A stretch of 57,836 nucleotides of DNA from Porticoccaceae bacterium (GCA_051306415.1 JBPPNE010000074.1:1-57836); one strand, 5' to 3'; shown: positions 16,476 to 54,564, counted from the first letter of the stretch. The notes: generated from the sequence alone by a model not told the origin. Numbers and translations are program-made.

Positions 16476-16477
16476 GG

Positions 16478-16759: not shown

Positions 16760-16789
16760 AGTGTCTCCTTTGGTCGTTGCGTTGTGGGT

Positions 16790-18112: not shown

Positions 18113-18120
<8 letters not shown>
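17788..18120 (-). CDS. atpQ: AtpZ/AtpI-like N-ATPase AtpQ subunit
   Basis: 110 aa, two TM helices (GVWFGLGMMGIIGWSVAIPTLLGAALGIWLD), in the position after atpC. Confidence 0.7.
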
Positions 18121-21490
<3,370 letters not shown>

Positions 21491-26462: not shown

Positions 26463-27140
26463 CTATTCCCGGTCGAAGCGCACGACTTTGCCGCTCTTGA
26501 AACGCAGCACCAACTGGTCACTTTCAAAGGAAAACTTCGCCTTTTTTCCATCCCGAATCGCCGCCGACCGAATCGTATCGCCATGCACTGAAAATGAGCC
26601 TTTGAGATCTCGGACTTGGCCGGCAAACGGAATATCGGACCACGCCAGGAGAGTTGCTTTTCCTTCTCGGCGGAAGGTGAGCCGGATCCTGACCTCGCCC
26701 ATTTTCGCGTCCACGTCTTTGGCCGTCCAAGTACCGTAAAGTTGCTCGGGTGGCCGAGAGGGCTTCTCGCCTTTCCCGATTTCAGCCGCAACAACGCTCG
26801 GTTTCATCTTCTCAACCGGCGTTCCATGAGCAAATGCTCCGCCCCATACAGCGGCTGCGGTGAAGAGGGCAATGATGCCTTTAATAAAGGGGGTACCGTC
26901 TTTACTTCTGTTGCGGTGGCGGATCGTCTCGTCGTAGAGAATCTCGCCGCTGATGCACTCACCGAGACCGGGCGTGGTCACGATCAATTCCCGCCAAGTA
27001 CGCCTTGCTGCCTCGGTTTGGGAAATCCCCAAGCAGGCAAAGCGTTTGTTGTAGGTAGGATTGCTTTCATCCATCGCCAGCAGGCCCTTATCAGCGGCGA
27101 CCAGCGCACTCGCGGTATCCATAATCTTAGTTGCATTCAT
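26463..27140 (-). pseudogene. chimeric ORF: first ~88 aa of a class I aldolase joined to a signal-peptide-like segment plus an unknown ~120-aa beta-rich domain
   Basis: From the ATG at 27140 (GGAG RBS), DKGLLAMDESNPTYNKRF...WRELIVTTPGLGECISGEILYDET parallels the N-terminus of the intact Fba. Homology stops at ...TPFIKGI and continues as IALFTAAAVWGGAFAHG.... Confidence 0.55.
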
Positions 27141-27168
27141 TTTGCATTGCTCCATTTCCGCTGGCGCA

Positions 27169-28044
27169 CTACTTCGCCAGCTGCTTGCGGATGGATTCCA
27201 ACTCTTTCCGGCGCTTCGCAGTGGTCTTGGGGTAGGCCATGTCGAGTTCATTGAACGCATCCAGGATGGCTTGCAACACGATCAAACGTGCATTCTTTTT
27301 GTCATCGGCAGGAACGATGTACCAGGGGGCGTGATCGGTGCTTGTCGCGTTCAAGCAATCCTCATAGGCGGCCATGTAATGCGCCCAGTATTTCCGCTCG
27401 TGAAGATCTGCGTCGCCGAACTTCCAGTTCTTGTCCGGCTCATCGAGGCGATCAAGGAATCGCTTTCTCTGCTCTTCCTTCGACAAGTGAAGAAAGAACT
27501 TTATGATCCGCGTTCCGTTGCGGTAGAGATGGTTTTCCATATCCACGATGGAGCGATAGCGCTCCTTCCAGACGGTGTCCTCGTCGAGCAGTGCGTCCGG
27601 CAGTCCCTGCGTGCGCAGGATCTGCGGATGCACGCGGACGATCAGCACTTCCTCGTAATAGGAGCGGTTGAAGATGCCGATGCGGCCGCGTTCCGGCAGG
27701 GAGCGGGTGGTGCGCCACAGAAAGTCGTGCTCCAGCTCGGTAGCACTCGGGTGTTTGAAGCTGAACACCTGGCAGCCTTGCGGGTTGACGCCGGACATGA
27801 CGTGCCGGATGGCGCCGTCCTTGCCGGCAGCGTCCATCGCCTGAAAGATCAGCAGCAACGAATAGCGGTTGGAGGCGTAGTGAAGGCGCTGCAGTTCGCT
27901 TAGCTCCTCGACATTTCGTCGCAGGAATTTTTTGTATTTTTTCTTCGATTTGTACACCGGTTCGACCTGCGTCGGCCACTTTGCGAGATTGACCTTGTCG
28001 CCTTCCTGTACCCGGAAATCCTTTGAGTTGATTTTCATCATCAT
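27169..28044 (-). CDS. ppk2: polyphosphate kinase 2 family (polyP:nucleotide phosphotransferase)
   Basis: 291 aa. [38 protein letters not shown]...[15 protein letters not shown] is the typical single-domain PPK2 pattern. Confidence 0.85.
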
Positions 28045-28209: not shown

Positions 28210-29556
28210 CTATGCCCTCTCTTCCTCTGCGCACAAAGCAGGCTCGGGTTCGAGCGCTTCGCGCACTTCCAACAACCGCTTTGCGATCCGCTCGCGATCA
28301 TGGGTGGCTTCGATGGTGCGGCCTGCCAATTCGGCCAGCCACTGCACCTGTTCGTGAAGTGCCTGCCGGCGGCGCGGACTGGTCGTGAGTTCGGCGAGGA
28401 CCGCGAAGGCGCTGAGCATGCGCGCCATGATGGCGACATTGCCTGCGGCGCTGCCCCGAATCTGATCGAACGCCTCGGCCAACAGTCCTTCAAAGGTCGG
28501 AACGATGGCAATCACACGCAGTGTTTCTCCCTCGTAACGGTGCGATAACGGGAATTGCCGACAGGCCAGCCGAGTCAGAATCGCCGTCAGATAATCCACG
28601 CACATCACGGCCGTCGAGGTGTCATTAACACCGGGCGAAAGCGCCTTCAATGCCATATCCACGATCTGTCTGATACCGAAAGAAGGATCCTGTTCCACCG
28701 TGCGATGGCGGCTGATGCTGTAAGCCTTATTCAGGGCAGCAATCATCTCCTGATCCGGCGGGTAAGTCAGGGCGAGCGACGCCAACGCAGCATCTTGCAC
28801 AACGAACGCGCCGACGCCGTGCTCCATCTGCACGATGGTCTTCCTGTCCCGCGCCAAGCCCAGGAGGGCATCATTATCCACGCTCTGTATGTAGCCGCTC
28901 GCGGCTGCCGGCACTGCGTACCAGGTCCTCTCATCCAGAGACCGAAGCACCTGGTCCTGGCCCTCATCTTCATCGGGTCCGTGTCCCAGTTTTTCCGGAA
29001 ATAGCCGGTCAATGGCCGCGATGGCTTCACGAGCAACCGAGGCGATGATGTTGGAAGCCTGGATCGACGAGGCGATGTGATGAATGAAATAAATAAGGAC
29101 GCCAACGCCGCAGAGCGCCAGGATAAATGCAAAGAAAACCGCCATGCTTGGCACGAATTCGGTTTCACCGCCGCGAATGGTGCGCAACACGATCAGGCAA
29201 TAGACAAAAGTTCCGCCGAAGATACCGAGTGTGACCTGCGTGACGCGGCTGCGCATGAAGTTCCGCAAGATGCGCGAGGTGTACTGACCCGAAGCCAGAG
29301 TCATTGCCAGCAGAGTCATGGAAAACGTGATACCCATAACGGATATCATCGAACCGGCAAGCGTCGCCAACATCTGGCGCGCCCCTTCCGTCCCGGTCCC
29401 AAACAGGCGTGGCCACTGGTTCATCCATTGGGCACTCCCGGCGGAGTCTACTTCGATCAACGCTGCCGCTAAGACAATACTGACCGCGACCATCAGCAAA
29501 GGCATAAACCAGAAGCTTGCCCGCAGATCGCCCCAAATTTGTCTCAATTTATTCAT
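28210..29556 (-). CDS. DUF2254 domain membrane protein (full length)
   Basis: 448 aa with 4-5 N-terminal TM helices followed by a soluble domain. The family is recalled from the FGIRQ..D.A.KALSPG.ND..TA pattern. The start overlaps the xfp stop by 8 nt. Confidence 0.65.
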
Positions 29557-34768: not shown

Positions 34769-35212
34769 TCATTTGGCAGGCATGGTCTCTGTCATCTGGT
34801 CATGCTGCATCATTTGCTCCATCATCATCTGCATCATGTCCATGCGATTTGCCATCATTTCCTGGCGCTGTGCCATGTCGCCACCTGTCATGTTTTTGTT
34901 GCCGCCCATTGCCATGCCACCGGACTGGCTGCTGTCCAGCATCATCGGACCGCCCATGCTGCGCATCGACTTCATGTTTTCCTGCATGGCCTGCATGTGC
35001 TCCTGCATCAGCTTCTGACGTTCCTTCGGGTCGTTTGTTGCCCGGACCTTCTCCATCTGCTGCTGCATTTTTTTCATATCCCCCTGCATCTGAGACATTT
35101 GCTTGTCCATACGCATTCCCGGCGCGGCGGGCGCGGTTTCTTCCTTCGCCGATACGATAGATGCGGACAGGAAGCTGGCAACGATTGTGGCAACTAGTAT
35201 TGAGGTTTTCAT
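34769..35212 (-). CDS. exported methionine-rich protein (putative periplasmic Cu(I)-binding)
   Basis: ATG at 35212 after AAGGAA. The signal peptide is MKTSILVATIVASFLSASIVSA. By hand count there are ~31 Met in the ~120-aa mature part (MQMMMEQMMQHDQM and similar). Confidence 0.6.
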   Translation of the reverse strand: MKTSILVATIVASFLSASIVSAKEETAPAAPGMRMDKQMSQMQGDMKKMQQQMEKVRATNDPKERQKLMQEHMQAMQENMKSMRSMGGPMMLDSSQSGGMAMGGNKNMTGGDMAQRQEMMANRMDMMQMMMEQMMQHDQMTETMPAK

Positions 35213-35341
35213 TGTAGGTTTTCCTTCAGGGTTGAATAGATCAATGTTTCCGTTACTGGCGACTGCTGGTCGTGAAGGCTTGGCGTGAACACAACGCAAC
35301 ACGTCCACGTCAGGCAAGTCGTGTTTCTGACAGCTATACGT

Positions 35342-35679: not shown

Positions 35680-37614
35680 CTATTTTTCCAGTCTCAGCAA
35701 TCGCGCGTTGATGGCCACAATCACTGTACTTGCGGCCATCAACGCTGCACCCACTGCCGGGGTGAGCACCATGCCCCACGCGTAAAGCGCGCCGGCCGCT
35801 AACGGAATCGCGACGACATTGTAGCCGGTGGCCCAGGCCAGATTCTGTATCATTTTCCGATACGTGGCCCGGGAAAGCTGCACGATGGCCACAACGTCCA
35901 GCGGGTTGCTGCGTACCAGAATCACGTCGGCGGTTTCCACCGCCACATCGGAACCGGCACCGATGGCGATACCCACGTCGGCCTGCGCCAGCGCCGGAGC
36001 ATCGTTCACGCCGTCACCGGTCATGGCCACCCTCACCCCGCGTGATTGCACTTCTTTCACTTTGGCGGCCTTGTCCTGAGGCAGAACTTCGGCGAAATAT
36101 TCATCCAGCCCGATCTGATCCGAAACCCACTGCGCCGTCGCTTTGTTATCGCCGGTGAGCATCATGCAGCGGATGTTCATCGCCTTGAGGGCAGCTATGG
36201 CTTGCTTCGCCTCGGGCCGGACGATGTCGGCCAGTGCGATCGCGCCTTTCAACTGACCGTCCACGAGCACAAACACGACCGTTTTGCCCTGGGCTTGCAG
36301 CGGCTCGACGCTTTTGTCGTCAAACGCGATGTTCTGTTCGCGCAAGAAGCCTGGACTGACCACTTTGATGTCTTTGCCATCGACCCTGCCTTCTGCGCCT
36401 TTGCCGGTGATGCTTTTGAAGCCTTCAACCGGTAGCTTCTGCTCGTAAGCATCAGCGATAGCTTTGGCGATGGGATGCTCGGAATTCGCGTCCACCGAGG
36501 CCGCGTATTTGCGCAGCGTGTCTTCGTCGATGTCCTGCGCCAGCAGCAGCGTGTCGGTCACGCCAAAGCGGCCCTCGGTCAGCGTGCCGGTCTTGTCAAA
36601 GATGATGGCTTGCAATTTCCGCGCACCCTCGAAAGCGCCGCGATTGCGAATCAGCAGGCCGTTGCTCGCGGCCAGTGCCGTGGAGACGGCTACTACCAAC
36701 GGCACCGCCAGACCGAGCGCATGCGGGCAGGTGATCACCATCACAGTCACGGCGCGCTCGATGGCAAACGCGAATTCCTTGTTCATGAAATACAGCCAGA
36801 TGAATAAGGTAATGACTCCGGAACTCAGCCCAATGATGGTGAGCCACATCGCGGCGGTATCGGCGAGGTTTTGCGTCTTCGATTTGCTTTCCTGCGCCTG
36901 CTTCACCAGGTTGATGACCTGCGACAAAAACGAATCCTTGCCAGTACCTTTGACTTCGATAGTCAGCGAGCCTTCGCCGTTGATGGCGCCGCCGATGACT
37001 TTGCCGCCGCTCTTCTTGCTGACCGGGGTCGATTCCCCGGTGAGCATCGCCTCATTGACCGAACTCTCGCCGTCGACGATCACACCGTCCGCAGGGATTT
37101 TTTCACCCGGCTTGATCAGCACCCTGTCATCAACTGTCAGTTCGCCCAGCGGCACGTCTTTCACGCTGCCGTCGGGCATGAGTTTGTGTGCATCGGAAGG
37201 CATCAGTTTCGCCAATGCCTCCAGCGCCTTGGATGCGCCCATCACCGACTTCATTTCGATCCAGTGCCCGAGCAGCATGATGTCTACCAGCGTGGCCAAT
37301 TCCCAGAAGAACATCTTGCCGATCAGGCCGAACACCACGGCGCTGCTGTATGCATAAGCGGTGGTGATCGCGACGGCGACCAGCGTCATCATCCCAGGCT
37401 TGCGGGCCTTAAGCTCATCGAACAAGCCCTTGAGGAACGGCCAGCCGCCATACCAGAATACCGCCGAGGCAAAGCCGAACAGGACGTAGGTGTCGCCCGA
37501 GAAACTGATGGCTTCGCGCAAGCCCACCAGTTTTTGCAGCAGCGGCGAGAGAACGAGTATCGGCAACGTCAGGGCCAGCGAGATCCAGAAGCGTTTCCTA
37601 AAATCTGCCGCCAT
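35680..37614 (-). CDS. copB: P1B-type heavy-metal ATPase, CPH (CopB-like, P1B-3) class; N-terminal domain apparently split off by a frame change
   Basis: 644 aa with TCPHALGLAVP (CPH), [10 protein letters not shown] and MTGDGVNDAPAL. In the same frame, 13 codons upstream of the ATG still encode ...PPAGHDHHAH (a His-rich CopB-type remnant) after a TGA at 37654-37656. Confidence 0.85.
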   Translation of the reverse strand: MAADFRKRFWISLALTLPILVLSPLLQKLVGLREAISFSGDTYVLFGFASAVFWYGGWPFLKGLFDELKARKPGMMTLVAVAITTAYAYSSAVVFGLIGKMFFWELATLVDIMLLGHWIEMKSVMGASKALEALAKLMPSDAHKLMPDGSVKDVPLGELTVDDRVLIKPGEKIPADGVIVDGESSVNEAMLTGESTPVSKKSGGKVIGGAINGEGSLTIEVKGTGKDSFLSQVINLVKQAQESKSKTQNLADTAAMWLTIIGLSSGVITLFIWLYFMNKEFAFAIERAVTVMVITCPHALGLAVPLVVAVSTALAASNGLLIRNRGAFEGARKLQAIIFDKTGTLTEGRFGVTDTLLLAQDIDEDTLRKYAASVDANSEHPIAKAIADAYEQKLPVEGFKSITGKGAEGRVDGKDIKVVSPGFLREQNIAFDDKSVEPLQAQGKTVVFVLVDGQLKGAIALADIVRPEAKQAIAALKAMNIRCMMLTGDNKATAQWVSDQIGLDEYFAEVLPQDKAAKVKEVQSRGVRVAMTGDGVNDAPALAQADVGIAIGAGSDVAVETADVILVRSNPLDVVAIVQLSRATYRKMIQNLAWATGYNVVAIPLAAGALYAWGMVLTPAVGAALMAASTVIVAINARLLRLEK

Positions 37615-38357
37615 GTGGGCATGATGGTCGTGTCCGGCGGGGGGGCTTTCGACTCAGCGTCCACGGGTGTTGAGGGCTGTGTGCCCGACGCCGCGTGACC
37701 CTTGTGGCCGCCAGCTGCGGGAGTGGCCGGCGCGGGTTCTGGCTCAGCGGCGGACGCGCCTGGGGCAGCTTTCGGCGCATCGGCTGCGGGCGTTGAAGTC
37801 TGCGCGCCCGGTTCCACCTTGCCCTTGTCTTCGCCGGCAAAGGTATCCCTTACCCAAGCGGTAACCTTGCCAAGTGCCCCCGACTCCTCATGGTCCCTGT
37901 GTTCGTCGGCTGGAGAAGCGGCAGGCGTGGATGCCGGAGTGGCGGCGGAAGCGCCCGTAGGAGGTTTCGGCTCAGCGACAACGAATGTTGACGGCGGCGT
38001 ACTCGGCGGCGCTTGGTCGCTTTTCCCGCCACCTGCTGAAGCGGCAGGCGTGGGGGCGTCAACAGGCGCGTCCTGGGATGGTTTCGGCTCGGCGGCTGCG
38101 GCTGCGGACGGTGGCGCGTCCGGCACCACTTTGTCCTGTGGTCCGTCGCCTGCGGGCTGCTTCCCGCGTTGGTGCACGAGTACCTTGATATCGGCGACGT
38201 TGAGCAGGGTTTCGTCGTAGCGCACCGTGGCGTTTCCCGCAGCGTAATTCACTGTCGCGCTTTCGATACCCGGCACCTCGCCAAACCGCTTTTCCACTTC
38301 GTCCACGGTCAACACCGACAGCATGTCGTGCACTTCAATAACGCTCGTTTTCATCAC
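37569..38357 (-). CDS. Cys-less HMA-like domain protein 1 with a long Ala/Pro-rich tail (possibly the N-terminal part of CopB)
   Basis: The product is MMKTSVIEVHDMLSVLTVDEVEKRFGEVPGIESATVNYAAGNATVRYDETLLNVADIKVLVHQRG plus a ~190-aa low-complexity tail containing GGHKGHAASG. The 3' end overlaps copB out of frame. Confidence 0.7.
   Translation of the reverse strand: MMKTSVIEVHDMLSVLTVDEVEKRFGEVPGIESATVNYAAGNATVRYDETLLNVADIKVLVHQRGKQPAGDGPQDKVVPDAPPSAAAAAEPKPSQDAPVDAPTPAASAGGGKSDQAPPSTPPSTFVVAEPKPPTGASAATPASTPAASPADEHRDHEESGALGKVTAWVRDTFAGEDKGKVEPGAQTSTPAADAPKAAPGASAAEPEPAPATPAAGGHKGHAASGTQPSTPVDAESKAPPPDTTIMPTWRQILGNASGSRWP
37639..37645 (-). other. C7 homopolymer (C CCC CCG in the upstream frame): candidate -1 frameshift or indel site joining ORF 37569-38357 to copB
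   Basis: The plus strand has GGGGGGG at 37639-37645. A -1 shift, or one extra C, turns ...AESKAPP into ...AESKAPPAGHDHHAHMAADFRKRFW (the copB frame). Confidence 0.5.
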
Positions 38358-38797
38358 TCCTCCTTTGCGGCTACGGATGTTGATGGCGGCGCAGCCGGCG
38401 CCGCTTTGTCCTGTTGCCCGTCGCCTGCAGGAACAGCCGGCTTGGGCGCAGCGGCAGGCGCGACCGGGGCAGCTTTCAGCATAGCGGGTTCGGACGGTGA
38501 AGCGGCGGCCGGCGCCGCTTCCAGCGTTGGTTCTACAGCATGCTTATGTGCTGGCTTGTCTTCGCTCTCATCCTTGGCTTTGGATTCGCCTGCGGGCCGC
38601 TTCCCGTGTTGGTGCACGAGCACCTTGATACCGGCGACATCGAGCCGGGTTTCGTCGTAGCGCACCGTGGCGTTTCCCGCAGCGTAATTGACCGTCGCGC
38701 TTTCGACACCCGGCACCTCGCAAATCCGCTTTTCCACTTCGTCCACAGTCAGTACAGACAGCATGTCGTGTACTTCAATAACGCTCGTTTTCATCAC
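38354..38797 (-). CDS. Cys-less HMA-like domain protein 2
   Basis: 147 aa with the same N-terminal 65-aa domain. The tail contains DKPAHKHAVEPT. ATGA overlaps occur at both ends. Confidence 0.7.
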   Translation of the reverse strand: MMKTSVIEVHDMLSVLTVDEVEKRICEVPGVESATVNYAAGNATVRYDETRLDVAGIKVLVHQHGKRPAGESKAKDESEDKPAHKHAVEPTLEAAPAAASPSEPAMLKAAPVAPAAAPKPAVPAGDGQQDKAAPAAPPSTSVAAKEE

Positions 38798-39234
38798 TCA
38801 TCCTTAGCGGCTGCGGGTGTTGACGGCGGCGCAGCCGGCGCCTCATTGTCCTGTTGCCCGTCGCTTGCAGGAGCTGCCGGCTTGGGCGCGGTGGCAGGCG
38901 CGACCGGGGCAGCTTTCGGCACAGCGGGTTCGGGCGGTGAAGCGGAGGCCGGCGCCGCTTCCTGCGTTGGTTCTACAGCATGCATATGTGCGGGCTTGTC
39001 TTCGCTCTCATCCTTGGGTTGGGATTCGCCTGCGGACTGCTGCCCGCGTTGGTGTATGAGTACCTTGATATCGGCGACTTCGAGCAGGGTTTCGTCGTAG
39101 CGCACCGTGGCGTTTCCCACAGCGTAATTGACCGTAGCGCTTGCTACACCCGGCACCTCGCCAATTCGCTTTTCCACTTCGTCCACGGTCAATACCGACA
39201 GCATGTCGGTTACTTCAATAATGCTGGTTTTCAT
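38794..39234 (-). CDS. Cys-less HMA-like domain protein 3
   Basis: 146 aa: MKTSIIEVTDMLSVLTVDEVEKRIGEVPGVASATVNYAVGNATVRYDE.... The tail contains DKPAHMHAVEPT. Confidence 0.7.
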   Translation of the reverse strand: MKTSIIEVTDMLSVLTVDEVEKRIGEVPGVASATVNYAVGNATVRYDETLLEVADIKVLIHQRGQQSAGESQPKDESEDKPAHMHAVEPTQEAAPASASPPEPAVPKAAPVAPATAPKPAAPASDGQQDNEAPAAPPSTPAAAKDE

Positions 39235-39284
39235 ATCGCCTCCTTAATGGTCTTCATATTTGAAATGTTTTGTTACATCTCCGA

Positions 39285-42200
39285 TCATTTCGCGAGCTGG
39301 CCGTTTTGTGCGCGCGCCTGCATAACTTGCGTAAAAGTGTGACTCACCAATTTGCGCAGTTCGCTGACCCACAGCACCACGCTGGCCATCGCCATGCACA
39401 GCAGCCACTGGTCGAACGCCAGCGGCACCGTACCGAAGGCAAGGTTGAGGAAGGCGAGGTTGACGACTGCCACCTGCAACAGCGCCGACAGTGCAACCGC
39501 GCCCCACAGCCACGGGTTGACGAACAGGTGCCTGAACGCACTCGTCGTGTCCGAGCGCGCGTTGAAGCAGGTGAATAAGCTGGTGAAGACGAGTACCGTA
39601 AAACCTGCGGTGCGGGCAGTTTTGAGGTCGTATGCGCCCTCGATCAGCCCACCAGGCAGGTAGATGTCGATCGTCAGCAGCGTCACCACGGCTATCACCA
39701 CGCCGGTTTGGATCACATTCGCCCACATGCGGACGTCAATCAACCGCTCGCTTAAGTGCCGCGGCTTGCGGGCCATGAGGTCGTCAGTGGGCGGGTCGAC
39801 GCCCATCGCGAGCGCAGGCCCGGAGTCGGTGATCAGGTTGATCCACAGGATCTGCGTGGCGAGCAGCGGCAGCACTACTGCGCCGCCAGCGCCTTTGAGC
39901 CCAATCACGCCGGCCCCTACCACGCCCAGGAAGACCGTCAGCACCTCGCCCATGTTCGAGGACAGCAGGTAGCGCAGGAACTTGCGGATGTTGTCGACAA
40001 TGTCGCGCCCTTCGCGCACAGCCTCGACGATCGTGGCGAAGTTGTCGTCGGCGAGGATCATCTTGGCCGCTTCCTTCGTCACCTCGGTCCCGGTCACACC
40101 CATCGCGACGCCGATGTCAGCCGACTTCAGCGCGGGTGCATCGTTGACGCCGTCGCCGGTCATCGCGACGATGTTTCCGTCGGCCTGCAGTGCGTCGACG
40201 ATGCGCAGCTTGTGCGCGGGCGACACCCGTGCGTAGACGGACGTCTTGCGCACTGCGTCGGCGAAGCCCGCGCCGTCCAGCGCGTCGAGCTCCGCCCCCG
40301 TCAGCGCCGGGGCACCGGCCTCCACGATCCCAAGGTCGGCGGCGATGCGTGCGGCGGTGCGCGGGTGGTCGCCGGTAATCATGATCACCCGGATGCCAGC
40401 CCGATGGGCCTCGCGAATGGCAACCGCCGCCTCCTCGCGCGGCGGGTCGATGATGCCCACGGTGCCCACGAACACGAGGTCACGTTCGAGCGATTCCGTG
40501 ACTTGCGGGTCCTCACCGGGGCCGAGGGGGCGGTAGGCCACGGCCAGGGTGCGCAGCGCCGCGTCTGAAAGCGTGTCGACGTCAGCCAGGAGCCGCGCCC
40601 GCCGCGCGTCATCGAGGTCGACGAGTTCCATCCCCACCCGCGCCCGGGTGCACCGTTCGAGTAGGACATCCGGGGCACCCTTGGTGATCACCACAACCTC
40701 GTCGTTGTGTTCGTGGTCCAGTTCGATCGTCGACATCATCTTGCGCTCGGACGTGAACGGGATTTCGCCGATGCGCTCGAAACGCCGCTCGCGCTGCTCG
40801 GTGACGCCGAGTTTGCGCTCGGCCACCAGGAATGCCGCTTCGGTGGGGTCGCCGTGAATCTCCCACTCGCCCCCCGCCCCCTGGCGCAGGTCGGCGTTGC
40901 CGGCCAGGCTGCCGCCGCTGAGCACCGCGATTTGCTCGTCATGCAGCGGTCCGGCAGTTAGCTCAGCGCCTTCGTGCTCCACCCGCCCCTGAGGCGCGTA
41001 CCCCACCCCGGTGACATGGGTGCCGCCCGAGGCGGTCATCACCCGTACGATGGTCATTTCCCCACGGGTCAGGGTGCCGGTCTTGTCCGAGGCGATGACC
41101 GATGCGGAGCCCAGCGTCTCCACCGACGACAACTTTTTGACGATCGCGTTGTGCTTCGCCATCCGCTGCACCCCCAGGGCGAGCACCACCGACAGGATCG
41201 CCGGCAGCCCCTCGGGCACAGCCGCCACCGCCAGGGCCACGCCGAGCAGCAAGACGTGAATGACATCGGCGGCGCTGCGGATATCGGAGATCAGCAGGAT
41301 GGTTCCCACCACCACCACGGCAATGATGACGATCGCTATGCCGAGCATGCGCCCGATGCGTCCGACTTCCTTCTCCAACGGTGTCGGCTCGTCCGCGGTG
41401 GCCTCAAGCATTGCGGCAATCGAACCCATCTCGGTGTCCATCCCGGTCGCCGTGATCACGGCCCGGCCCGCGCCCTGCGCCACAGCCGTGCCCTTGAAGA
41501 CCATGTCGAACCGGTCGCCGAGCGCCGCCGCCTCGCGCAGCGTGGCCGCATCCTTGAGCACGGCTTCACTCTCGCCGGTCAGAGAGGCTTCCTGCACGCG
41601 CAGTGAGGTGGCCTCGATCAGGCGCGCATCCGCCCCGATGGCGTCACCTTCACCGAGCGCGAGCAAGTCCCCGAGCACCAGTTCCGCGCTGGGCACACGC
41701 AGCAACTGTCCGTCACGCATGACCGCCGAGGTTACGGCGGTCATCCGTGCCAGTGCGGCGACGGCGTTCTGTGCCTTGGCTTCCTGCATAAAGCCCAGCA
41801 CCCCATTGAACAAGACAACGATCGTGATAACAATCGCATCCACCGGCCAGCCCTTCGTGCCCTCAATGATCCAGGCGACGAGGGCGATGGCGATGGCGAC
41901 GAGCAGCAGATAAACCAGGGGATCATGGAAGTGCGACAGGAAGCGAAGCCACGCTGGCCGCCGCGGAGCAGAGCGGAGTTCGTTGCGGCCGTTTTCCGAA
42001 AGACGGCGCGACGCCTCCTGTGAAGTGAGTCCGTTTTCGAGGTCTGCGCCAAAAGCTCTCGCTACTTCGTCAGCATTTTTGACGGAAGGATCATCGAGAC
42101 TGCCTGCCTTCTCCATGGTGGATGCGGGAGTCATAGCGGGTGCGGGGGATGGAGGCGGCGCACCCGGCGCCGTGTGGCTCGCGTGGCCGTCGACTGCGGG

Positions 42201-42530
42201 AGCGGTCGGCGCAGGCACAGCAGCTATGGGCGTTGAAACGGAGGCCGGAGCCGCTTCCGGCGTTGGTGCTACAGCATGCTTTTGTGCGGGCTCGTGTTTG
42301 CTCACATGCTTGGGTAGGCGTTCGTCTGCGGACTGATGCCCGCGTTGGTGCACAATCACCTTGATATCGGCTACTTCGAGTAGGGTTTCGTCGTAACGTA
42401 CCGTGGCGTTTCCCGCGGCGTAATTCACTGTCGCGCTTTCGACACCCGGCACCTCGCCAATCCGCCTTTCCACTTCTTCCACACTCAATACCGACAGCAT
42501 GGCGCGCACTTCAATAACGCTCGTTTTCAT
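39285..42530 (-). CDS. P2A-type (SERCA/Ca-ATPase-like) cation pump with an N-terminal Cys-less HMA-like domain (copy 4)
   Basis: ATG at 42530 after AAGGAG: MKTSVIEVRAMLSVLSVEEVERRIGEVPGVESATVNYAAGNATVRYDE, then an Ala/Pro linker, then Cation_ATPase_N-like LTSQEASRRLSENGRNEL. DKTGTLT, PEGLPA, YLLSSNMGEV, NLITDSGPALA and TGDGVNDAPALK are all present. Confidence 0.85.
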   Translation of the reverse strand: MKTSVIEVRAMLSVLSVEEVERRIGEVPGVESATVNYAAGNATVRYDETLLEVADIKVIVHQRGHQSADERLPKHVSKHEPAQKHAVAPTPEAAPASVSTPIAAVPAPTAPAVDGHASHTAPGAPPPSPAPAMTPASTMEKAGSLDDPSVKNADEVARAFGADLENGLTSQEASRRLSENGRNELRSAPRRPAWLRFLSHFHDPLVYLLLVAIAIALVAWIIEGTKGWPVDAIVITIVVLFNGVLGFMQEAKAQNAVAALARMTAVTSAVMRDGQLLRVPSAELVLGDLLALGEGDAIGADARLIEATSLRVQEASLTGESEAVLKDAATLREAAALGDRFDMVFKGTAVAQGAGRAVITATGMDTEMGSIAAMLEATADEPTPLEKEVGRIGRMLGIAIVIIAVVVVGTILLISDIRSAADVIHVLLLGVALAVAAVPEGLPAILSVVLALGVQRMAKHNAIVKKLSSVETLGSASVIASDKTGTLTRGEMTIVRVMTASGGTHVTGVGYAPQGRVEHEGAELTAGPLHDEQIAVLSGGSLAGNADLRQGAGGEWEIHGDPTEAAFLVAERKLGVTEQRERRFERIGEIPFTSERKMMSTIELDHEHNDEVVVITKGAPDVLLERCTRARVGMELVDLDDARRARLLADVDTLSDAALRTLAVAYRPLGPGEDPQVTESLERDLVFVGTVGIIDPPREEAAVAIREAHRAGIRVIMITGDHPRTAARIAADLGIVEAGAPALTGAELDALDGAGFADAVRKTSVYARVSPAHKLRIVDALQADGNIVAMTGDGVNDAPALKSADIGVAMGVTGTEVTKEAAKMILADDNFATIVEAVREGRDIVDNIRKFLRYLLSSNMGEVLTVFLGVVGAGVIGLKGAGGAVVLPLLATQILWINLITDSGPALAMGVDPPTDDLMARKPRHLSERLIDVRMWANVIQTGVVIAVVTLLTIDIYLPGGLIEGAYDLKTARTAGFTVLVFTSLFTCFNARSDTTSAFRHLFVNPWLWGAVALSALLQVAVVNLAFLNLAFGTVPLAFDQWLLCMAMASVVLWVSELRKLVSHTFTQVMQARAQNGQLAK

Positions 42531-42598
42531 CGCAGCTCCTTGGTCGGCTTCATCTTGTGAATGCTTTGTTACATCGCCAATCTCTTCGCAAGCTGACC

Positions 42599-42652
42599 GT
42601 TTTCGAGGTGGCGCCAACCTCGTTATGGCAACTGTGCAACACGCGTGTCGGC
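42599..42652 (-). repeat. 54-nt conserved element immediately 3' of HMA-like gene 5 (copy A)
   Basis: 46/54 identical to 43694-43747 by hand alignment. It contains a hairpin CGAGGT-N7-ACCTCG (42604-42622). The stem is conserved between copies while two loop positions differ. Confidence 0.6.
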
Positions 42653-43138
42653 CTAGCTTTTGTTCGGCGCCGCTTTGTCTTGTTGTTTGTCGCCTGCAGG
42701 AGCAGCAGGCTTCGGCGCAGTGATCGCGGGAGCGGCGGCCGGCGCGGCCGGGGACGATTTCGGTGTTGTTGACGGCGCCGCTTTGTTTTGTTTCGCGGTG
42801 CCTGCGGAAGCAGTGTCCGCTGTGACAGGTGCGTCCGGGGGAGTTTTCGGCGCAGCGGGTGCGGGGGCTGCGGGCGGCGCGCCCGGCGCGGTGTGGCCTT
42901 CGTGACCGTCGCCCGCCGAAGCGGTGGCAGGCGCGGCGGACTCATACCCGCGTTGGCGCACGGCCGACTTGATATCGGCGACCTCGAGTCGGGTTTCGTC
43001 GTAGCGCACTGTGGCGCTTCCCGCAGCGAAATTCACCGTGGCGCTTTCGACACCCGGCACCTCGCCAAGCCGCTTTTCCACTTCGTCTACGGTCAGTACC
43101 GACAGCATGTCGCGCACTTCAATAACGCTCGTTTTCAT
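42653..43138 (-). CDS. Cys-less HMA-like domain protein 5
   Basis: 161 aa, RBS AAGGAGG: MKTSVIEVRDMLSVLTVDEVEKRLGEVPGVESATVNFAAGSATVRYDE.... The tail contains GDGHEGHTAPG. Confidence 0.7.
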   Translation of the reverse strand: MKTSVIEVRDMLSVLTVDEVEKRLGEVPGVESATVNFAAGSATVRYDETRLEVADIKSAVRQRGYESAAPATASAGDGHEGHTAPGAPPAAPAPAAPKTPPDAPVTADTASAGTAKQNKAAPSTTPKSSPAAPAAAPAITAPKPAAPAGDKQQDKAAPNKS

Positions 43139-43241
43139 CGTGCCTCCTTACTTAGTCGGCTTCATCTTCTGCGGGTCCGGCCGGATCAGCCGCTTATCCT
43201 TGCCGGTGTAGTGAAGCCGCCCGAGAAGATGAAGCACCACA

Positions 43242-43628
43242 CTAGTTTCCTTTTGGCTTATGTTTCTCGTAGCGCTCCGTATCGCCAGGTCCTTCTTCCC
43301 GAACCATTTCGCACACTGCCAAGGGTGTCGGTGCACCGGCACGCCAAAACCATCCCACGGGGAGAAAGCGATCGGTCTGGTTTGCGATTTCGCGCGTTGG
43401 CTGGAAGGACACTTCCAAACCAGATTCCACCTGCATAACTTCATCGGGAAGCGGCTGGAATTCACCAGTTTGTTCGTCGTGCATGTGCGGCATGAAAATG
43501 CCGAGTCTGTATTCAGACAGTCTGCGAAGCATCTCCTGGACTTCTGGAAGGTGGATTGCCTCCTGAGCAGTTCTCAACGCTTGTGGCAAACCACTGGCGT
43601 TTCCTTGTGAAACATTCGCTATCGTCAT
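43242..43628 (-). CDS. hypothetical 128-aa protein nested in the HMA-like array
   Basis: ATG at 43628 after AGGAG: MTIANVSQGNASGLPQALRTAQEAIHLPEVQEMLRRLSEYRLGIFMPHMHDEQTGEFQPLP.... No family recognised. Confidence 0.45.
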   Translation of the reverse strand: MTIANVSQGNASGLPQALRTAQEAIHLPEVQEMLRRLSEYRLGIFMPHMHDEQTGEFQPLPDEVMQVESGLEVSFQPTREIANQTDRFLPVGWFWRAGAPTPLAVCEMVREEGPGDTERYEKHKPKGN

Positions 43629-43693
43629 GATTCGCTCCTGCTTAGACGTTGTTGACCCATTCGAATTGGCCAGGTCAAGTGCCGAGTGCCCTT

Positions 43694-43747
43694 GTTTTCG
43701 AGGTAGCACCAACCTCGTTGTAGCAACTGCGCAAGACACGTGTCGTC
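43694..43747 (-). repeat. 54-nt conserved element immediately 3' of HMA-like gene 6 (copy B)
   Basis: See 42599-42652. The hairpin here is CGAGGT-agcacca-ACCTCG. Confidence 0.6.
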
Positions 43748-44215
43748 CTAACTTTTGTCCGGGGCTGATTTGGGTGCGGCGGACGTGGGCGCGGGTGCGG
43801 CGGCCGGCGCGGCCGGGGAAGGTTTCGGTGTTGTTGACGGCGCCGCGTCCGGCGCCGCTTTGTTTTGTTGTGCGGGGCCTGCGGAAGCGGCGCCCGCGGT
43901 GGCAGGTGCGGCCGGGGCAGTTTTCGGCGCAGCGGGTGCGGGGGCTGCAGCCGGCGCCCCCGGTGTTGCGTGGCCTTCGTGATCGTCGTCTGCGGAAGCG
44001 GCGGCGGGTGCGGCGGACTCGTACCCGCGTTGGCGCACGGCCGACTTGATATCGGCGACGTCGAGTCGGGTTTCGTCGTAGCGCACAGTGGCGCTTCCCG
44101 CAGCGAAATTCACCGTGACGCTTTCGACACCCGGCACTTCGCCAATCCGCTTTTCCACTTCGTCTACGGTCAGTACCGACAGCAGGTCGCGCACTTCAAT
44201 AACGCTCGTTTTCAT
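43748..44215 (-). CDS. Cys-less HMA-like domain protein 6
   Basis: ATG at 44215 after GGAGG: MKTSVIEVRDLLSVLTVDEVEKRIGEVPGVESVTVNFAAGSATVRYDE.... The tail contains DDDHEGHATPG. Confidence 0.7.
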   Translation of the reverse strand: MKTSVIEVRDLLSVLTVDEVEKRIGEVPGVESVTVNFAAGSATVRYDETRLDVADIKSAVRQRGYESAAPAAASADDDHEGHATPGAPAAAPAPAAPKTAPAAPATAGAASAGPAQQNKAAPDAAPSTTPKPSPAAPAAAPAPTSAAPKSAPDKS

Positions 44216-44301: not shown

Positions 44302-44556
44302 TTAGCCGCAGCAGCCGCCCTTGCCTTGCGGTTTTTTCGCGGCAGTGGTGGCATCCACGCCATAGCCCGCGCTCTTCACGGCGGTTTTGAGTTGATTGGG
44401 CGAGGTCAGCCGCTCGTCGTATTGCACCGTGGCTTCGCCGGCCGAGAGCGAGACTTTTACATCACTGATTCCGGGAATCGCCTTCAGTGCGTGCGCTACC
44501 TTGCTGGTGCAACCGCCGCAAGTCATACCGGTTACTTTTAAAATTTCAGTTTGCAT
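44302..44556 (-). CDS. copZ: canonical CopZ-type HMA metallochaperone with a C-terminal GGCCG tail
   Basis: ATG at 44556 after AAGGAA: MQTEILKVTGMTCGGCTSKVAHALKAIPGISDVKVSLSAGEATVQYDE...KPQGKGGCCG. The classic MTCxxC motif is present. Confidence 0.85.
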   Translation of the reverse strand: MQTEILKVTGMTCGGCTSKVAHALKAIPGISDVKVSLSAGEATVQYDERLTSPNQLKTAVKSAGYGVDATTAAKKPQGKGGCCG

Positions 44557-44742: not shown

Positions 44743-45027
44743 TCATAGAGCCATTCCATTGATGGCGCTTTTTCGCTGAAGAAAGCGTGGCGATGAGGGG
44801 CAGGAACACGATAAGAGTGACGCGGTGTAGACCGCAGTCAGTAGCCCCGTGTGCCGGGAAACTTGCGTCGCCTCCACTCCCGCACCCAAGAGCCGCTCGA
44901 TCAGACGGGGCGGGCGCGCAAGCACGACGCCATAGCCGACCGACACCGTGAACACGGCGATCATGAGCACGGCCATACTAAATGCAAGCCCACTGGCCGT
45001 ACGTTCGGTATTGACCCTCACAACCAA
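44743..45027 (-). pseudogene. N-terminal remnant of an MFS transporter
   Basis: LAFSMAVLMIAVFTVSVGYGVVLA...LIERLLGAGVEATQVSRHTGLLTAVYT resembles the first two TM helices of MFS efflux proteins (recalled). The frame then degenerates and stops. Confidence 0.35.
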
Positions 45028-46319
45028 CCTCCATCAAATCCCGCTCGCCGCAATCCGCCCGCGATATACCGGCATTTTCGCGTCAGTTCCCACAACAAAC
45101 CGGTCCGGTAATTTTCGATCATCAGGATGATTGGTCCCTGATTGAGGCCAAAATGCCACGGCGAGACCCACCAACCATAAGGATTGCCGGACTTTCCCGG
45201 ATGGGAGGGATTGAAGGAGGCTTTGAAGCCGTAGGAGTTGAACTCGGTCAACTTTTTCTGATGAATGCAATGGTGGAGCGCGAACAGAACGATTTCGGGT
45301 GCGAACGGCAGCGACGCCACCACGGCCCACGGTGCAAGGGTACCGTCGTCGGGTCCGTACGGCACGCCGCGCCCCACGTAATCGAAAAACTGCCGATCGA
45401 TGCCGTTTATTTTGATGGTGTCGGGGCCGGGGCCCTCGCTTGCGGTAATTCCCCAGCAACAGGAGGCATAGTCCTTGAACTTAAGTGGGTTGTCGATCGC
45501 ATACTGTTGTTGCACATAAGTTGCGCGGCGGCTGTTCTCGAAATAGTCAATGCCTTTATCACGCATGAAGGCGTCCTGAATACCACGAAAGTCGATCCAG
45601 ACATGCGAGAGCTGATGGATAAATAGCGGCCCGCCGTACAGATACTCCTGTCCGTAACAGTGCTCCCACTTGTAAGTGGAAGTCCACGCTGCGTAGCTCT
45701 CCTCGGGTAGCGGATAAGTCGGCGAGCCCAGCCCCAGCATATACAACAGCAGCGCCTCGTCGTAGCCTTCCCACCGGTAGTTGAGGAAGCCGCTTTCCGG
45801 CTTCCAGCCGTGCGTCACCGTTGCACCTTGGTTTTGCGCCCATTGCCAATCGGCGCGGCGATAGAGCGCGTCGCCAAGGGTGCGGATTTCAGTCTCGTCG
45901 GCTGTACTGGCGTCGAAATAAATCCCCGCCGTCAACGCGCCGGCCAGCAAAAAAGCGCTGTCCACTGTCGACAGCTCGCATTGCCAGACGCGACGGCCGG
46001 TCTGCATGTCGAGAAAATGATAGTAAAACCCCTTGTAGCCGGTTGCGTCGGGTTCGGGGCCTTGCGGGCTGTTCCAGAAAAAACGCAGCGTCGCAAGCGT
46101 TCGCTCCACCGCCGCGGCCCGCGACATGAATCCGCGTTCGACACCCACCGGGTAGCACGCTAACGCCAGGCCGGTAGCGGCAATGCTGGACGGCCAATCC
46201 GGCGCTGTCTTGTCGACCACCAGCCCGTTGGCGGGATTCGTCTCGTGCAAAAAATAACCGAATGTTTCGCGCTGCAGCTTTTCCAGTTCGGCATCGACGG
46301 TTAGTGTCCTCTGGCTCAT
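45018..46319 (-). CDS. second GH144/DUF3131-like protein (paralog of 441-1739)
   Basis: 433 aa, collinear with copy 1 over the full length. Roughly three quarters of positions are identical by eye. It has no signal peptide and no GH94 partner nearby. Confidence 0.65.
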   Translation of the reverse strand: MSQRTLTVDAELEKLQRETFGYFLHETNPANGLVVDKTAPDWPSSIAATGLALACYPVGVERGFMSRAAAVERTLATLRFFWNSPQGPEPDATGYKGFYYHFLDMQTGRRVWQCELSTVDSAFLLAGALTAGIYFDASTADETEIRTLGDALYRRADWQWAQNQGATVTHGWKPESGFLNYRWEGYDEALLLYMLGLGSPTYPLPEESYAAWTSTYKWEHCYGQEYLYGGPLFIHQLSHVWIDFRGIQDAFMRDKGIDYFENSRRATYVQQQYAIDNPLKFKDYASCCWGITASEGPGPDTIKINGIDRQFFDYVGRGVPYGPDDGTLAPWAVVASLPFAPEIVLFALHHCIHQKKLTEFNSYGFKASFNPSHPGKSGNPYGWWVSPWHFGLNQGPIILMIENYRTGLLWELTRKCRYIAGGLRRAGFDGGWL

Positions 46320-46395: not shown

Positions 46396-46656
46396 TCACC
46401 CGTTGCCCGGCGAGTCCTCGGACGCGCACATATGCTTCGGCAGCATTTCGCCGGTGCAATGGTAGCCGCACTCGTGCACCCTGGCCTTGATGGTCTTCAG
46501 ATCGGTGACGGTTTCGTCGAAGACTACCGTCGCGCTGCCGGCGACGTAATTGACCCCGGCCCGGTGCACGCCCGGGAGCTTGGCGAGCTGCTTCTCCACA
46601 CCACGGGCGCTCAGCGTCGACAGCATGCCACTTACCTCGATCGTAACGGTCTTCAT
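46396..46656 (-). CDS. divergent Cys-less-site HMA-like protein 7 with a Cys/His-rich C-terminus
   Basis: ATG at 46656: MKTVTIEVSGMLSTLSARGVEKQLAKLPGVHRAGVNYVAGSATVVFDE...ARVHECGYHCTGEMLPKHMCASED. The start overlaps the TPM gene stop by 4 nt. Confidence 0.6.
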   Translation of the reverse strand: MKTVTIEVSGMLSTLSARGVEKQLAKLPGVHRAGVNYVAGSATVVFDETVTDLKTIKARVHECGYHCTGEMLPKHMCASEDSPGNG

Positions 46657-47562: not shown

Positions 47563-48865
47563 GGGCACTTCTATAAATCACGTTTGAACACTGCCGTTTC
47601 TTGGCCAAACTTCATTTTTTGAAATTCCTGGATTGAGCGAGGTTTTTGGCTGCACTCTGCTGCTTTTCTTGCCCAATGGGGCTGTTTTGGGTGAGCATCC
47701 ACCCGCTTTCATGCGGTTGTCCGCGCGATAGGCGCACCGATCCTGTAAAAGTCAAACACCTTCAGACGAATCAGCGTCTCAATGCGCTTGAGGTTGTACG
47801 TCAGATTCATCAATCCCACCCCTGCCTTGGCGCGCGCCACACCGATGCTGCGCAGAAAAATGCCGCCCATGTCGTTTTCCATCGCACCAAAGACATGCTC
47901 GACCCGCGCACGTACCCGTGATTTCTCCGTGTTGCCGAGCTTCTGTTCTTCAGTCAACGGCTTGTTGCGGTAAGCCCGCTCGTGTATCCGGCTCCCGTGT
48001 TGACTGCCTTTGAGGCAGTGCTCTTGCGCGTCCGAGCGGTAGGCGCTGTCAGCCCACACTTCTTTGCCGCCCTCACTGGTCCGGCGCAGTAGGGTGTCGA
48101 GTGCCTGGCTGTCATGCACGCTGGCATCCGTGCAGAGCGCGGCGGTAATGAGTTTGGTGTCACGGTCAATGTTGATGTGGTTCTTGTAGCCGTAGTGATT
48201 CTGTCCGCCTTTCTTCGTCCAGCGGGCATCAATGTCTTTGTGTGCCAGCCTGGCCGGGGTCTTGCCCCACTCGACGGGAACCGCATCGGACTTGATGAGC
48301 GCATTGTGCTCGCGTCCGTTGCGCTGGATGGGCACGGGAACAAAGGTGGCGTCGATGATCTGTCCGCTCTTGAGTTCAACACCCAGATCGGCCAGCGCCT
48401 GGTTCAAACGCGCAAACAGCGGGTCAATCAGTTGATGTTCCTTGAGGGCTTCGCGGAATGCCCACACGGTGCGGGCGTCAGGCACGCTGCCGGAAAGTTC
48501 GAGTCCAAGAAAGCGCATGAATGAAAGCCGGTCGCTGACCTGGTACTGGAGACGTTCATCCGACAGGTTGTGCAGACGCTGGAGTATCAGCAGCTTGAAC
48601 ATGAGCACGCGGCAGAGCGTCTTGCGTCCGGCGGCGCTCTTGCGCTCTTTGCTGTCGATGCGTTCGAGGATGGGTCGGAATATCTCCCAATCGATGGCGG
48701 CGTCAAGGCGTTCCAACGGATCGCCCGCTTCGGAAAGACTGGCGTAACGATTGGCAAGATCAAAGAAGCTGCTTTGCATGGGAGAATCAGGTTGCTCCGG
48801 GTTGGACTACGATTCCGACATTATCCGGCTTCGCACGCTTGGGATGGGGATTTATAGAAGTGCCC
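47563..48865 (-). mobile_element. intact IS5-family insertion sequence (1303 bp) with 17-bp perfect terminal inverted repeats and a 4-bp target-site duplication
   Basis: The inverted repeat GGGCACTTCTATAAATC lies at 47563-47579 and its reverse complement at 48849-48865. Direct repeats TCTT flank it at 47559-47562 and 48866-48869. Confidence 0.9.
47709..48779 (-). CDS. IS5-family DDE transposase
   Basis: 356 aa. DATFVPVP...YGYKNHINIDRDTKLI...DSAYRS...RVRARVEHVFGAMEN are typical IS5/DDE_Tnp_1 motifs. Confidence 0.9.
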   Translation of the reverse strand: MQSSFFDLANRYASLSEAGDPLERLDAAIDWEIFRPILERIDSKERKSAAGRKTLCRVLMFKLLILQRLHNLSDERLQYQVSDRLSFMRFLGLELSGSVPDARTVWAFREALKEHQLIDPLFARLNQALADLGVELKSGQIIDATFVPVPIQRNGREHNALIKSDAVPVEWGKTPARLAHKDIDARWTKKGGQNHYGYKNHINIDRDTKLITAALCTDASVHDSQALDTLLRRTSEGGKEVWADSAYRSDAQEHCLKGSQHGSRIHERAYRNKPLTEEQKLGNTEKSRVRARVEHVFGAMENDMGGIFLRSIGVARAKAGVGLMNLTYNLKRIETLIRLKVFDFYRIGAPIARTTA

Positions 48866-54219: not shown

Positions 54220-54539
54220 GTGCCTTGACTCCTTGCCGGCGACACCCGGTCCGCTGCGAACCGGCGACCGCCGAGCCCGTTGTAAATCCAGGCGAACACT
54301 GCGCCCACCCCGAAGGTGGCAACGACGAGTCCCGCCAGCGCGCAGAAAAAGCCACTCCAGCCGAACCGCAATCCCGCCGCGGGCAATAAAGGCTTCAGAT
54401 CGAGCCCGTGTGTCAAGACACTGAACGAGGCCAGCGTACCAGCGGGCCACGCCACAACCGCAAACGTGCAGATTCCGTAAAACACCGCAGCGGTGATCGC
54501 CAGCGCCCCGCCGGTCTGCCAGGGATTCAGTCGGTGCAT
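54216..54539 (-). CDS. small 3-TM membrane protein (DUF5676-like, recalled)
   Basis: 107 aa: [23 protein letters not shown]...[27 protein letters not shown]. The stop overlaps the copA ATG (ATGA). Confidence 0.45.
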
Positions 54540-54564
54540 CGCCTATTCCTCCCGGCGCTGGCAT

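Follow-up and report, generated by a model that had tools for sequence, protein, structure and literature searches.

Seven HMA domains lacking the metal-binding cysteines lie beside two pumps

The 57,836-nucleotide (nt) stretch of DNA from a Porticoccaceae bacterium (GCA_051306415.1 JBPPNE010000074.1:1-57836; hereafter the window) carries on its minus strand a cluster of heavy-metal-associated (HMA) domains without cysteines in the metal-binding loop (Cys-less domains). Seven open reading frames (ORFs) or ORF heads scored 34.9-57.2 bits against Pfam PF00403, the gathering score of which (24.8 bits) was taken as the threshold of HMA membership, and a canonical CopZ gene (44302-44556) sits among the Cys-less copies. 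The genes follow each other in the order copy 6, U (encoding a small conserved protein), copy 5, copy 4 fused to a P2-type pump, copy 3, copy 2 and copy 1, the last at a pump with the transmembrane motif CPH. Two copies are attached to pumps (copy 4 to the P2 pump and copy 1, with a frameshift, to the CPH pump), four are free and one is a diverged copy with a Cys/His tail. The features are the following, where L numbers denote the related loci described below and SD a Shine-Dalgarno sequence:

35680-37614, minus strand: core of a copper ATPase of the P1B-3 (CopB) type, transmembrane motif CPH; Pfam E1-E2_ATPase and Hydrolase, NCBIfam TIGR01511 at 630 bits, over the cut-off
37569-38354, minus strand: copy 1, Cys-less HMA (DMLSVLTV) with Pro/Ala-rich linker; Pfam HMA 35.8 bits
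37639-37645, no strand assigned: G7/C7 homopolymer (G7 on the plus strand), found by reading the sequence and by three-frame translation
38354-38794, minus strand: copy 2, free Cys-less HMA, 146 amino acids (aa) from ATG, type-B tail (KPAHKH...GDGQQDKAAP); Pfam HMA 36.5 bits, SD AAGGAGG
38794-39234, minus strand: copy 3, free 146-aa Cys-less HMA duplicated in tandem with copy 2; Pfam HMA 34.9 bits, SD and ATG present
39285-42530, minus strand: copy 4 (AMLSVLSV), Pro/Ala/His linker and P2-type (PMR1/SERCA-like) cation ATPase; Pfam HMA, Cation_ATPase_N/C, E1-E2_ATPase and Hydrolase
42653-43138, minus strand: copy 5, free Cys-less HMA, 161 aa, type-A tail (GDGHEGHTAPGAPP ... AGDKQQDKAAPNKS); Pfam HMA 47.5 bits, AlphaFold2 (AF2) model, tail motifs common to homologues
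43242-43628, minus strand: U, conserved 128-aa protein starting with MTIANV, between copies 6 and 5; 1637 close homologues, present in 43 of 82 related loci
43748-44215, minus strand: copy 6, free Cys-less HMA (DLLSVLTV), 155 aa, type-A tail ending in SAPDKS; Pfam HMA 46.7 bits
44302-44556, minus strand: canonical CopZ (GMTCGGCT) with C-terminal GGCCG; Pfam HMA 65.7 bits, same C-terminus in L002, L012, L033 and L046
46396-46656, minus strand: copy 7, diverged Cys-less HMA (GMLSTLSA) with Cys/His-rich C-terminus HECGYHCTGEMLPKHMC; Pfam HMA 57.2 bits

The loop of the window CopZ, GMTCGGCT, aligned with D/A-M-L-S-V-L-T/S in copies 1-6 and with GMLSTLSA in copy 7, and this alignment upheld the original prediction that both ligand cysteines are lost, Ser and Thr/Ser standing at these positions in all seven copies. 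None of them contains a GMxCxxC metal-binding loop, and a loop free of cysteines would not be expected to bind Cu(I) through two loop Cys as CopZ-type chaperones do. Over the 65-codon domain the six close copies (1-6) share 84-96% DNA identity, which excludes a chance match, and every copy carries a strong SD sequence.

The AF2 model of copy 5 consists of a folded domain (residues 1-67, predicted local distance difference test score, pLDDT, ~89; strands 2-7, 30-36 and 41-46, helices 17-26 and 53-67) followed by a disordered tail (68-161). The best Foldseek matches in the PDB were CopZ (2qif), the metal-binding domain of ATP7B and MerP, with a probability of 1.00, accompanied by the Cys-less YAM domain of YajR. 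The Pfam scores, the domain model and these matches together confirm the HMA assignment and a beta-alpha-beta-beta-alpha-beta ferredoxin-like fold, of which only the last strand was left unmodelled. None of the seven copies reached the NCBIfam CopZ models NF033794, NF033795 and TIGR00003 (19-40 bits against cut-offs of 62-95), although the window CopZ itself, with 45-66 bits, is likewise under these 'exception' cut-offs. The seven copies are a clade within HMA and not a new fold.

The Cys-less domain is a portable N-terminal module of P-type ATPases

A protein search with the 69-aa domain retrieved at least 443 proteins, the best of which, from Vicinamibacterales, Gemmatimonadaceae, Thermomonas, Deltaproteobacteria and Phycisphaerae, were 78-91% identical. 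They are named 'heavy-metal-associated domain-containing protein', 'cation transporter', 'copper chaperone CopZ' or 'Cu2+-exporting ATPase'. The array had been put forward as a candidate new family; this was mistaken in so far as thousands of generically named members ('cation-translocating P-type ATPase' being another such name) are already in public databases, while the other half of the proposal, that no characterised family bears the signature, agreed with the databases and literature searched. NCBIfam gave only sub-threshold CopZ/MerP matches and Pfam only the generic HMA family, a solved structure of the domain was not found among the PDB matches, which were canonical CxxC HMA domains only, and the full-text literature, as far as reachable, held no description of a Cys-less HMA domain on bacterial pumps, the CPD motif alone being noted (PMC5552934). 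The family is uncharacterised.

A pattern scan that sampled one genome per species found 379 matching stretches with 80-92% identity in more than 10 phyla. The best 80 loci of the 379 belong to Bacteroidota, Planctomycetota, Beta-, Gamma- and Alphaproteobacteria, Myxococcota, Coriobacteriia, Nitrospirota, Acidobacteriota, Gemmatimonadota and Verrucomicrobiota, and include the cultured strains Stutzerimonas stutzeri CLN100 and Polaromonas glacialis R3-9. When 11.3 kb were compared with plasmids by megablast, no HMA array was detected, just the P2 pump core (at most 77% identity) and a glucoamylase-family gene, and an exact-sequence look-up of copy 5 gave no match. For each of 144 homologous domains compared with copy 5, nucleotide identity and nonsynonymous (dN) and synonymous (dS) divergence were estimated (medians: identity 85%, dN 0.08, dS 0.53, dN/dS 0.18). 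Copies binned as Verrucomicrobiota, Gemmatimonadota, Bacteroidota, Phycisphaerae, Thiobacillus and Lysobacter differ from copy 5 by a dS of only ~0.14-0.16. The low median dN/dS and the low dS across phyla point to purifying selection combined with recent horizontal transfer.

The gene contexts were tallied in 82 related loci plus the window, which together contain 177 HMA domains. Free Cys-less domains (90) were the most numerous, followed by those on P1B pumps of the CPD (37), CPH (8) and CPC (4) types and on P2 pumps (7). The predicted association with pumps of two classes is real and covers both P1B-3 and P2. Pfam was run on the called genes of L002, L083, L084 and L085; the other related loci were compared with the window proteins by BLAST only. 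In most related loci the free copies, encoded beside the pumps, are ~130-190 aa long (commonly ~150 aa) and, in many phyla, occupy a fixed place within the module. The recurring order free HMA, U, HMA-pump was seen in 20 cases; the variants were U followed by HMA (5) and HMA by itself 5' of a pump of either the P1B (9) or the P2 (4) type.

The P2 pumps bearing the domain match PMR1/SERCA-type Ca pumps best in NCBIfam. Among the 120 closest relatives of the window P2 pump, ~65 have the HMA domain and ~55 lack it, the latter being 81-91% identical to the query pump; the domain is therefore an optional add-on, often gained or lost. Most domain-bearing pumps (e.g., L002, 10835-13441) have CPD instead of CPH or CPC, that is, Asp in place of His at the transmembrane metal site, and P1B-3-like GYN...P and MSGST motifs. 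Taken together, the Cys-less HMA is a portable cytoplasmic module at the N-terminus of P-type ATPases, joined to them by a long disordered Pro/Ala-rich linker, and the window array is an expanded version of this module, which has spread horizontally across more than 10 phyla.

Copy 1 is separated from the CPH pump by a one-nucleotide deficit

Although all six ORF heads and the seventh copy reported earlier exist on the minus strand, copy 1 proved to be a frameshifted pump N-terminus and not a free gene. Its ORF overlaps the start of the CPH-pump ORF, which as read begins at an internal ATG (MAADFRKRFW). Immediately before this ATG, the pump frame encodes the His stretch GHDHHAHM (GHDHHAHMAADF), and frame +2 over the DNA of copy 1, which is the pump frame, reads ...GHDHHAHMAADFRKRFW, a His stretch of the CopB type; the window pump thus shares the His-rich N-terminus of CopB/P1B-3 ATPases. 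Farther upstream, a TGA (37654-37656) interrupts the pump frame, and the G7/C7 run lies between this stop and the His stretch. The missing base is confined to an interval of ~20 nt, bounded by the TGA and containing the G7 run, and one additional base in or adjoining the run (37639-37645) would rejoin the HMA domain and linker with the pump. In the closest pump homologues, L023 (87%), L004 (84%) and L017 (84%), the HMA domain, linker, His stretch and pump form a single ORF. Because these homologues are continuous and one base restores the fusion, copy 1 is, as the reading frames indicate, the N-terminus of the CPH pump itself, cut off by a deficit of one nucleotide. The split could be due to an error of sequencing or assembly, to a real frameshift (pseudogene) or to slippage. 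If the frameshift is allowed for, copy 1 lies at the N-terminus of a CPH pump in which a stretch rich in His precedes the first membrane helix, while the other copies are free or on the P2 pump.

Copies 2-6 show traces of tandem and cassette duplication

Copies 2 and 3 are tandem repeats of 441 nt, 90% identical in nucleotides and without any indel, and copies 5 and 6 are 96% identical in the domain. At the junctions from copy 3 to 2 and from 2 to 1 (AAGGAGGAG-TGATG-AAA), the SD sequence is within the upstream ORF, and the stop codon overlaps the ATG by a single nucleotide. The overlap of copies 1-3 described earlier is real but not literally an ATGA; read from the GTG start, it is GTGA. The domain dN/dS was below 0.6 for all pairs in the window with dS values of 0.06-0.43, and such low dS shows that much of the similarity of the copies comes from recent duplication or gene conversion. 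In the tails, dN/dS was 1.27 for copies 2/3 (few substitutions) versus 0.30 for copies 5/6. The proposal that the domain is nearly invariant while the tails drift is accordingly only partly right.

The end of copies 2 and 3 coincides with the point where 264-300-aa homologues (L034, L045, L052 and L085) continue into a two-helix membrane anchor, so these tandem duplicates may be truncated versions of a longer form that has a membrane anchor. In L085 (7035-7937), L034, L045 and L052, this form consists of a Cys-less HMA domain, a long Pro/Ala linker and the C-terminal two-helix anchor and is encoded immediately 5' of HMA-P2 pumps; L085 is the locus of the cultured Methylobacter svalbardensis.

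The upstream sequences are also repeated. The 21-nt sequence GGTTGGYGCYACCTCGAAAAC occurs at 42599-42619 and 43694-43714 (minus strand), 5' of the P2-pump gene and of gene U, and ~70 nt of leader are common to copies 3 and 4; these shared leaders appear as signs of cassette duplication. We considered GGTTGGYGCYACCTCGAAAAC as a general operator and rejected this, since the window contains it twice and 82 related loci together contain it only once, as expected of duplicated leader DNA. Promoter and terminator scans gave sites no commoner than in shuffled sequence.

These observations raise the question of whether the whole array is a by-product of recombination, in which the free copies, especially 2 and 3, are truncated duplicates of pump 5' cassettes produced by unequal crossing-over and have little or no function. 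The 84-96% nucleotide identity with dS of 0.06-0.43, the tandem unit with its tail dN/dS of 1.27, the end of copies 2/3 at the anchor of the longer homologues, the frameshifted copy 1 and the leaders duplicated along with the cassettes would all be explained in this way. It is hard to reconcile, however, with free copies at a fixed place of the module in most related loci, with conserved tail motifs and a conserved C-terminus, and with purifying selection on the tails of copies 5/6 (0.30) and on the domain of all pairs (below 0.6), while all copies have kept a strong SD. As an account of the array we regard this explanation as unlikely; it is plausible for copies 2 and 3 only.

The former metal-binding loop is conserved

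At the two former Cys positions, 131 of the 177 domains have S/S, 10 have S/T and 24 have the canonical C/C, and the C/C domains of the related loci are those of the accompanying CopZ. The S-x-x-T signature originally described is true of the window, but the norm of the family is S-x-x-S, which makes the Thr of the window a minority variant. The consensus loop is D/A-M-L-S-V-[LFW]-S, in which the second former Cys position varies (S/T/G/A/N/R), whereas M-L-S is among the most conserved positions of the domain and Ser13 is nearly invariant, without the relaxation expected of a dead site. Decay from chaperones, already doubted in the original prediction, was ruled out by the median dN/dS of 0.18, the conservation of the loop and the strong SD on every copy. 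A specialisation of free versus pump-fused domains was also considered and rejected, as the 63 free and 64 fused domains compared were nearly indistinguishable. The sole difference was at position 10, which is Asp in 59 of the 63 free domains, and Asp in 35 and Ala in 26 of the 64 fused ones.

Such conservation could be expected if the loop itself (Asp10, Ser13 and Ser/Thr16 with the backbone or Glu) bound Ca2+, Mn2+, Mg2+ or another ligand, so that the domains would truly carry or sense what the P2 and CPD pumps transport. In favour of this, the loop is more conserved than any other part of the domain, Asp10 predominates in the free copies, and the domain occurs on P2 pumps resembling Ca pumps and on CPD pumps with Asp at the transmembrane site. 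Against this, position 10 is Ala in many fused copies and position 16 can also be G, A, N or R, the hydroxyl groups of Ser and Thr make poor ligands for metals, the presence of the same domain on CPD, CPH, CPC and P2 pumps argues against binding of a specific substrate, and the surrounding genes are of the copper type (CopZ, CPH and CPC pumps, DUF411). Altogether, binding by the loop seems quite unlikely.

The CxxC loop is surface-exposed in canonical HMA structures (CopZ/Atx1), and an exposed, nearly invariant Ser13 would also be compatible with the earlier suggestion of a phospho-switch, in which phosphorylated Ser/Thr would control the docking of the domain on the pump. This suggestion found little to recommend it: no Ser/Thr kinase or phosphatase domain was found among the ORFs scanned with Pfam (most of the longer ORFs of the window and the called genes of L002, L083, L084 and L085), the second position varies among S, T, G, A, N and R, and an exchange of Cys for Ser is the usual isosteric swap that keeps the loop geometry and needs no special function. 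We consider a phospho-switch highly improbable.

Tails, the copy-7 type and protein U offer candidate metal ligands outside the loop

The 63 free tails contain 27% Ala and 19% Pro. An HxxH-type motif, typically GDGHEGHTAPGAPP, is near the fold in 36 of them, and the tail end ...AGD-QQDKAAPDKS is present in at least 25. The second tail type (copies 2-4) begins with ...E..PKH.S.H.PA.KH.. The idea that His motifs of the tails could serve as metal carriers thereby gains some support.

Copy 7 belongs to a sub-family with the loop GMLSALSA and, as C-terminus, a related tail that contains Cys, H.CGYHC.GE.LPKH.C (window 46396-46656, minus strand; L002, 10542-10802; L006, L009, L011 and L032). The pattern H.CGY(H/R)C.G..(L/P/V)P(K/R)H.C is common to the five orthologues (six members with the window copy). 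Such a conserved tail would place potential metal ligands beside the fold instead of in the loop in this lineage and could be a relocated metal site. The C-terminal GGCCG of CopZ, which is kept in the orthologues of several related loci, is an extra Cys pair.

Protein U has 1637 close homologues, which form 272 clusters at 50% identity, and its gene is almost always flanked by one for a free Cys-less HMA protein and one for an HMA-pump. PHxH, E68 and W93 are invariant, Cys106 is kept in at least 90%, and in most of the distant members a second Cys and a C-terminal HxxxH are added. No match to U was found in Pfam, NCBIfam or PDB, and its AF2 model (pLDDT 46) was unreliable and too poor for a fold search. 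The conserved PHxH, Glu68, Trp93 and Cys106 with the added Cys and HxxxH resemble a metal site, so U is probably a metal-binding partner.

Comparison with known systems

The usual explanation of the HMA domains at the N-terminus of copper pumps is that their two cysteines bind Cu(I). The Cys-less clade is like CopZ/Atx1 and the N-terminal HMA domains of CopA-type P1B-1 pumps in its fold, Pfam family and position at the pump N-terminus, and also in that a free copy is encoded beside a pump with a tethered copy. It is unlike them in the absence of the Cu(I) cysteines, scores far under the NCBIfam CopZ cut-offs, long Pro/Ala-rich tails with His motifs, and occurrence on P2-type pumps. For P1B-3 pumps, the literature reached describes N-termini just as His-rich stretches of 30-100 aa and mentions no folded Cys-less HMA domain, free paralogues or U. 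Most domain-bearing relatives, being CPD pumps with P1B-3-like TM7/8 motifs (transmembrane helices 7 and 8), correspond to the predicted 'P1B-3a' subtype (PMC5552934); Cubillas et al. (2017) noted that CPD pumps are longer and have few His, and gave the subtype as a prediction only (PMC5552934).

The YAM domain of the Escherichia coli major facilitator superfamily (MFS) transporter YajR (PDB 4q2l, 4q2m, 2ru9 and 3wdo) is also a Cys-less ferredoxin/HMA-like domain on a membrane transporter. With the model of copy 5 it gave target-normalised TM-scores of 0.68-0.83 at ~23% identity (Foldseek). Despite the similar fold, no Cys-less copy is attached to a YajR-type MFS transporter: YAM is C-terminal on its transporter, whereas the Cys-less clade is N-terminal on P-type ATPases. 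We know of no free paralogues of YAM.

In plants, HIPP/HPP proteins and HMA domains integrated in NLR immune receptors are HMA folds acting by protein-protein contact and not by metal transfer, and the Foldseek matches 9rsv and 8r7a are HMA-effector complexes (see also PMC11611257). These modules differ from the bacterial clade in being eukaryotic, in their unrelated context without any link to pumps, and in that many keep CxxC.

Possible role of the Cys-less domains

Since it has no loop cysteines, the Cys-less domain should be unable to carry Cu(I) on thiolates, and the pairing of free and tethered copies repeats the logic of CopZ and the metal-binding domains of CopA, which favours a docking or regulatory role. 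By analogy, we propose with even confidence that the domain is a thiolate-independent docking or regulatory module, any metal contact of which would be made by the His/Cys motifs of the tails or by U. The free copies would interact with the copy tethered to the pump, or else with the cytoplasmic domains of the pump, and modulate its turnover. Metal sensing or hand-over, if any, might be performed by His motifs beside the fold (GHEGH; PKHxSxH; HHDHHAH just before the first membrane helix), by the Cys/His tail of the copy-7 type or by the small protein U (PHxH…C). The near-identical cassettes would probably also provide sites of recombination by which the module passes from one pump class to another.

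Several points weigh against a docking or regulatory module. The mechanism is inferred from anatomy, and the AF2 model of copy 5 misses the final beta-strand of the canonical HMA fold. That the loop has stayed conserved at its former metal site (Asp10 in 59 of the 63 free domains, an invariant Ser13) could equally reflect a newly acquired site for a hard cation or small molecule, and the His motifs are short, 27 of the 63 free tails having none of the HxxH type. The neutral tails of copies 2/3 (dN/dS 1.27, few substitutions) suggest that the array may partly be a recombination by-product. Moreover, near-identical pump cores work without the domain, so its contribution may be minor.

A broader possibility, which we put forward tentatively and with some doubt, is that the Cys-less HMA domain, its free paralogues and U form a new accessory system, a shared set of regulators or chaperones, independent of the pump class, serving both P1B (CPD, CPH and CPC) and P2 pumps and responding to a signal other than thiophilic Cu(I). 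The signal might be, e.g., His-bound Cu(II) or Zn, or the low-oxygen or low-energy state suggested by the surrounding genes. If so, a single family of soluble partners would, for the first time, be seen to serve several classes of P-type ATPases. The clade is a natural experiment on what the HMA fold offers to a pump beyond metal carriage, such as docking, autoinhibition or recruitment of partners, and it points to two uncharacterised players, the CPD-type P1B pumps and the small PHxH…C protein (129 aa) travelling with them. The cultured carriers Stutzerimonas stutzeri CLN100, Polaromonas glacialis R3-9 and Methylobacter svalbardensis make direct testing possible.

Genes surrounding the cluster

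The HMA cluster is surrounded by an island containing genes for a GH94 phosphorylase, transketolase, phosphoglucomutase, aldolase, pyruvate kinase and PPK2, and further for NhaA, MscS-BON, DUF2254 and BrkB proteins, phosphoketolase, acetate kinase, CFA synthase and a PEMT-like methyltransferase. Its part at 441-34128 is a carbohydrate, energy and ion-stress island, whose genes include those for GH94, transketolase, phosphoglucomutase, class-I aldolase, pyruvate kinase, NhaA, MscS-BON, PPK2, DUF2254, phosphoketolase, BrkB and acetate kinase. Phosphoketolase, universal stress proteins and host-attachment/baeRF proteins are induced by microoxia in Bradyrhizobium diazoefficiens (PMC6515984), and as several gene classes of the island are of this kind, it mixes copper-type genes with those of low-oxygen and energy stress.

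A further operon for an F-type ATPase (gamma, alpha, b/delta, a and beta) is located at 11299-20195 (minus strand), with a baeRF-family-3 gene inserted at 12578-13732. Transposases of the IS5 and IS3 insertion sequence families flank the region (47709-48779 and 56678-57487). Nearby, at 51859-54564, 54850-55308 and 34769-35317, are another copper pump (CPC) that bears YHS and HMBD domains, a protein with DUF411 and a Met-rich one that looks secreted. Internal duplications are also found outside the HMA array: the glucoamylase-family genes at 441-1739 and 45018-46319 are 76% identical, DUF2254 is present as fragments and a full copy (from 23722, from 25766 and at 28210-29556), and a truncated class-I aldolase gene accompanies a full one (9631-10755 and 26463-27260).

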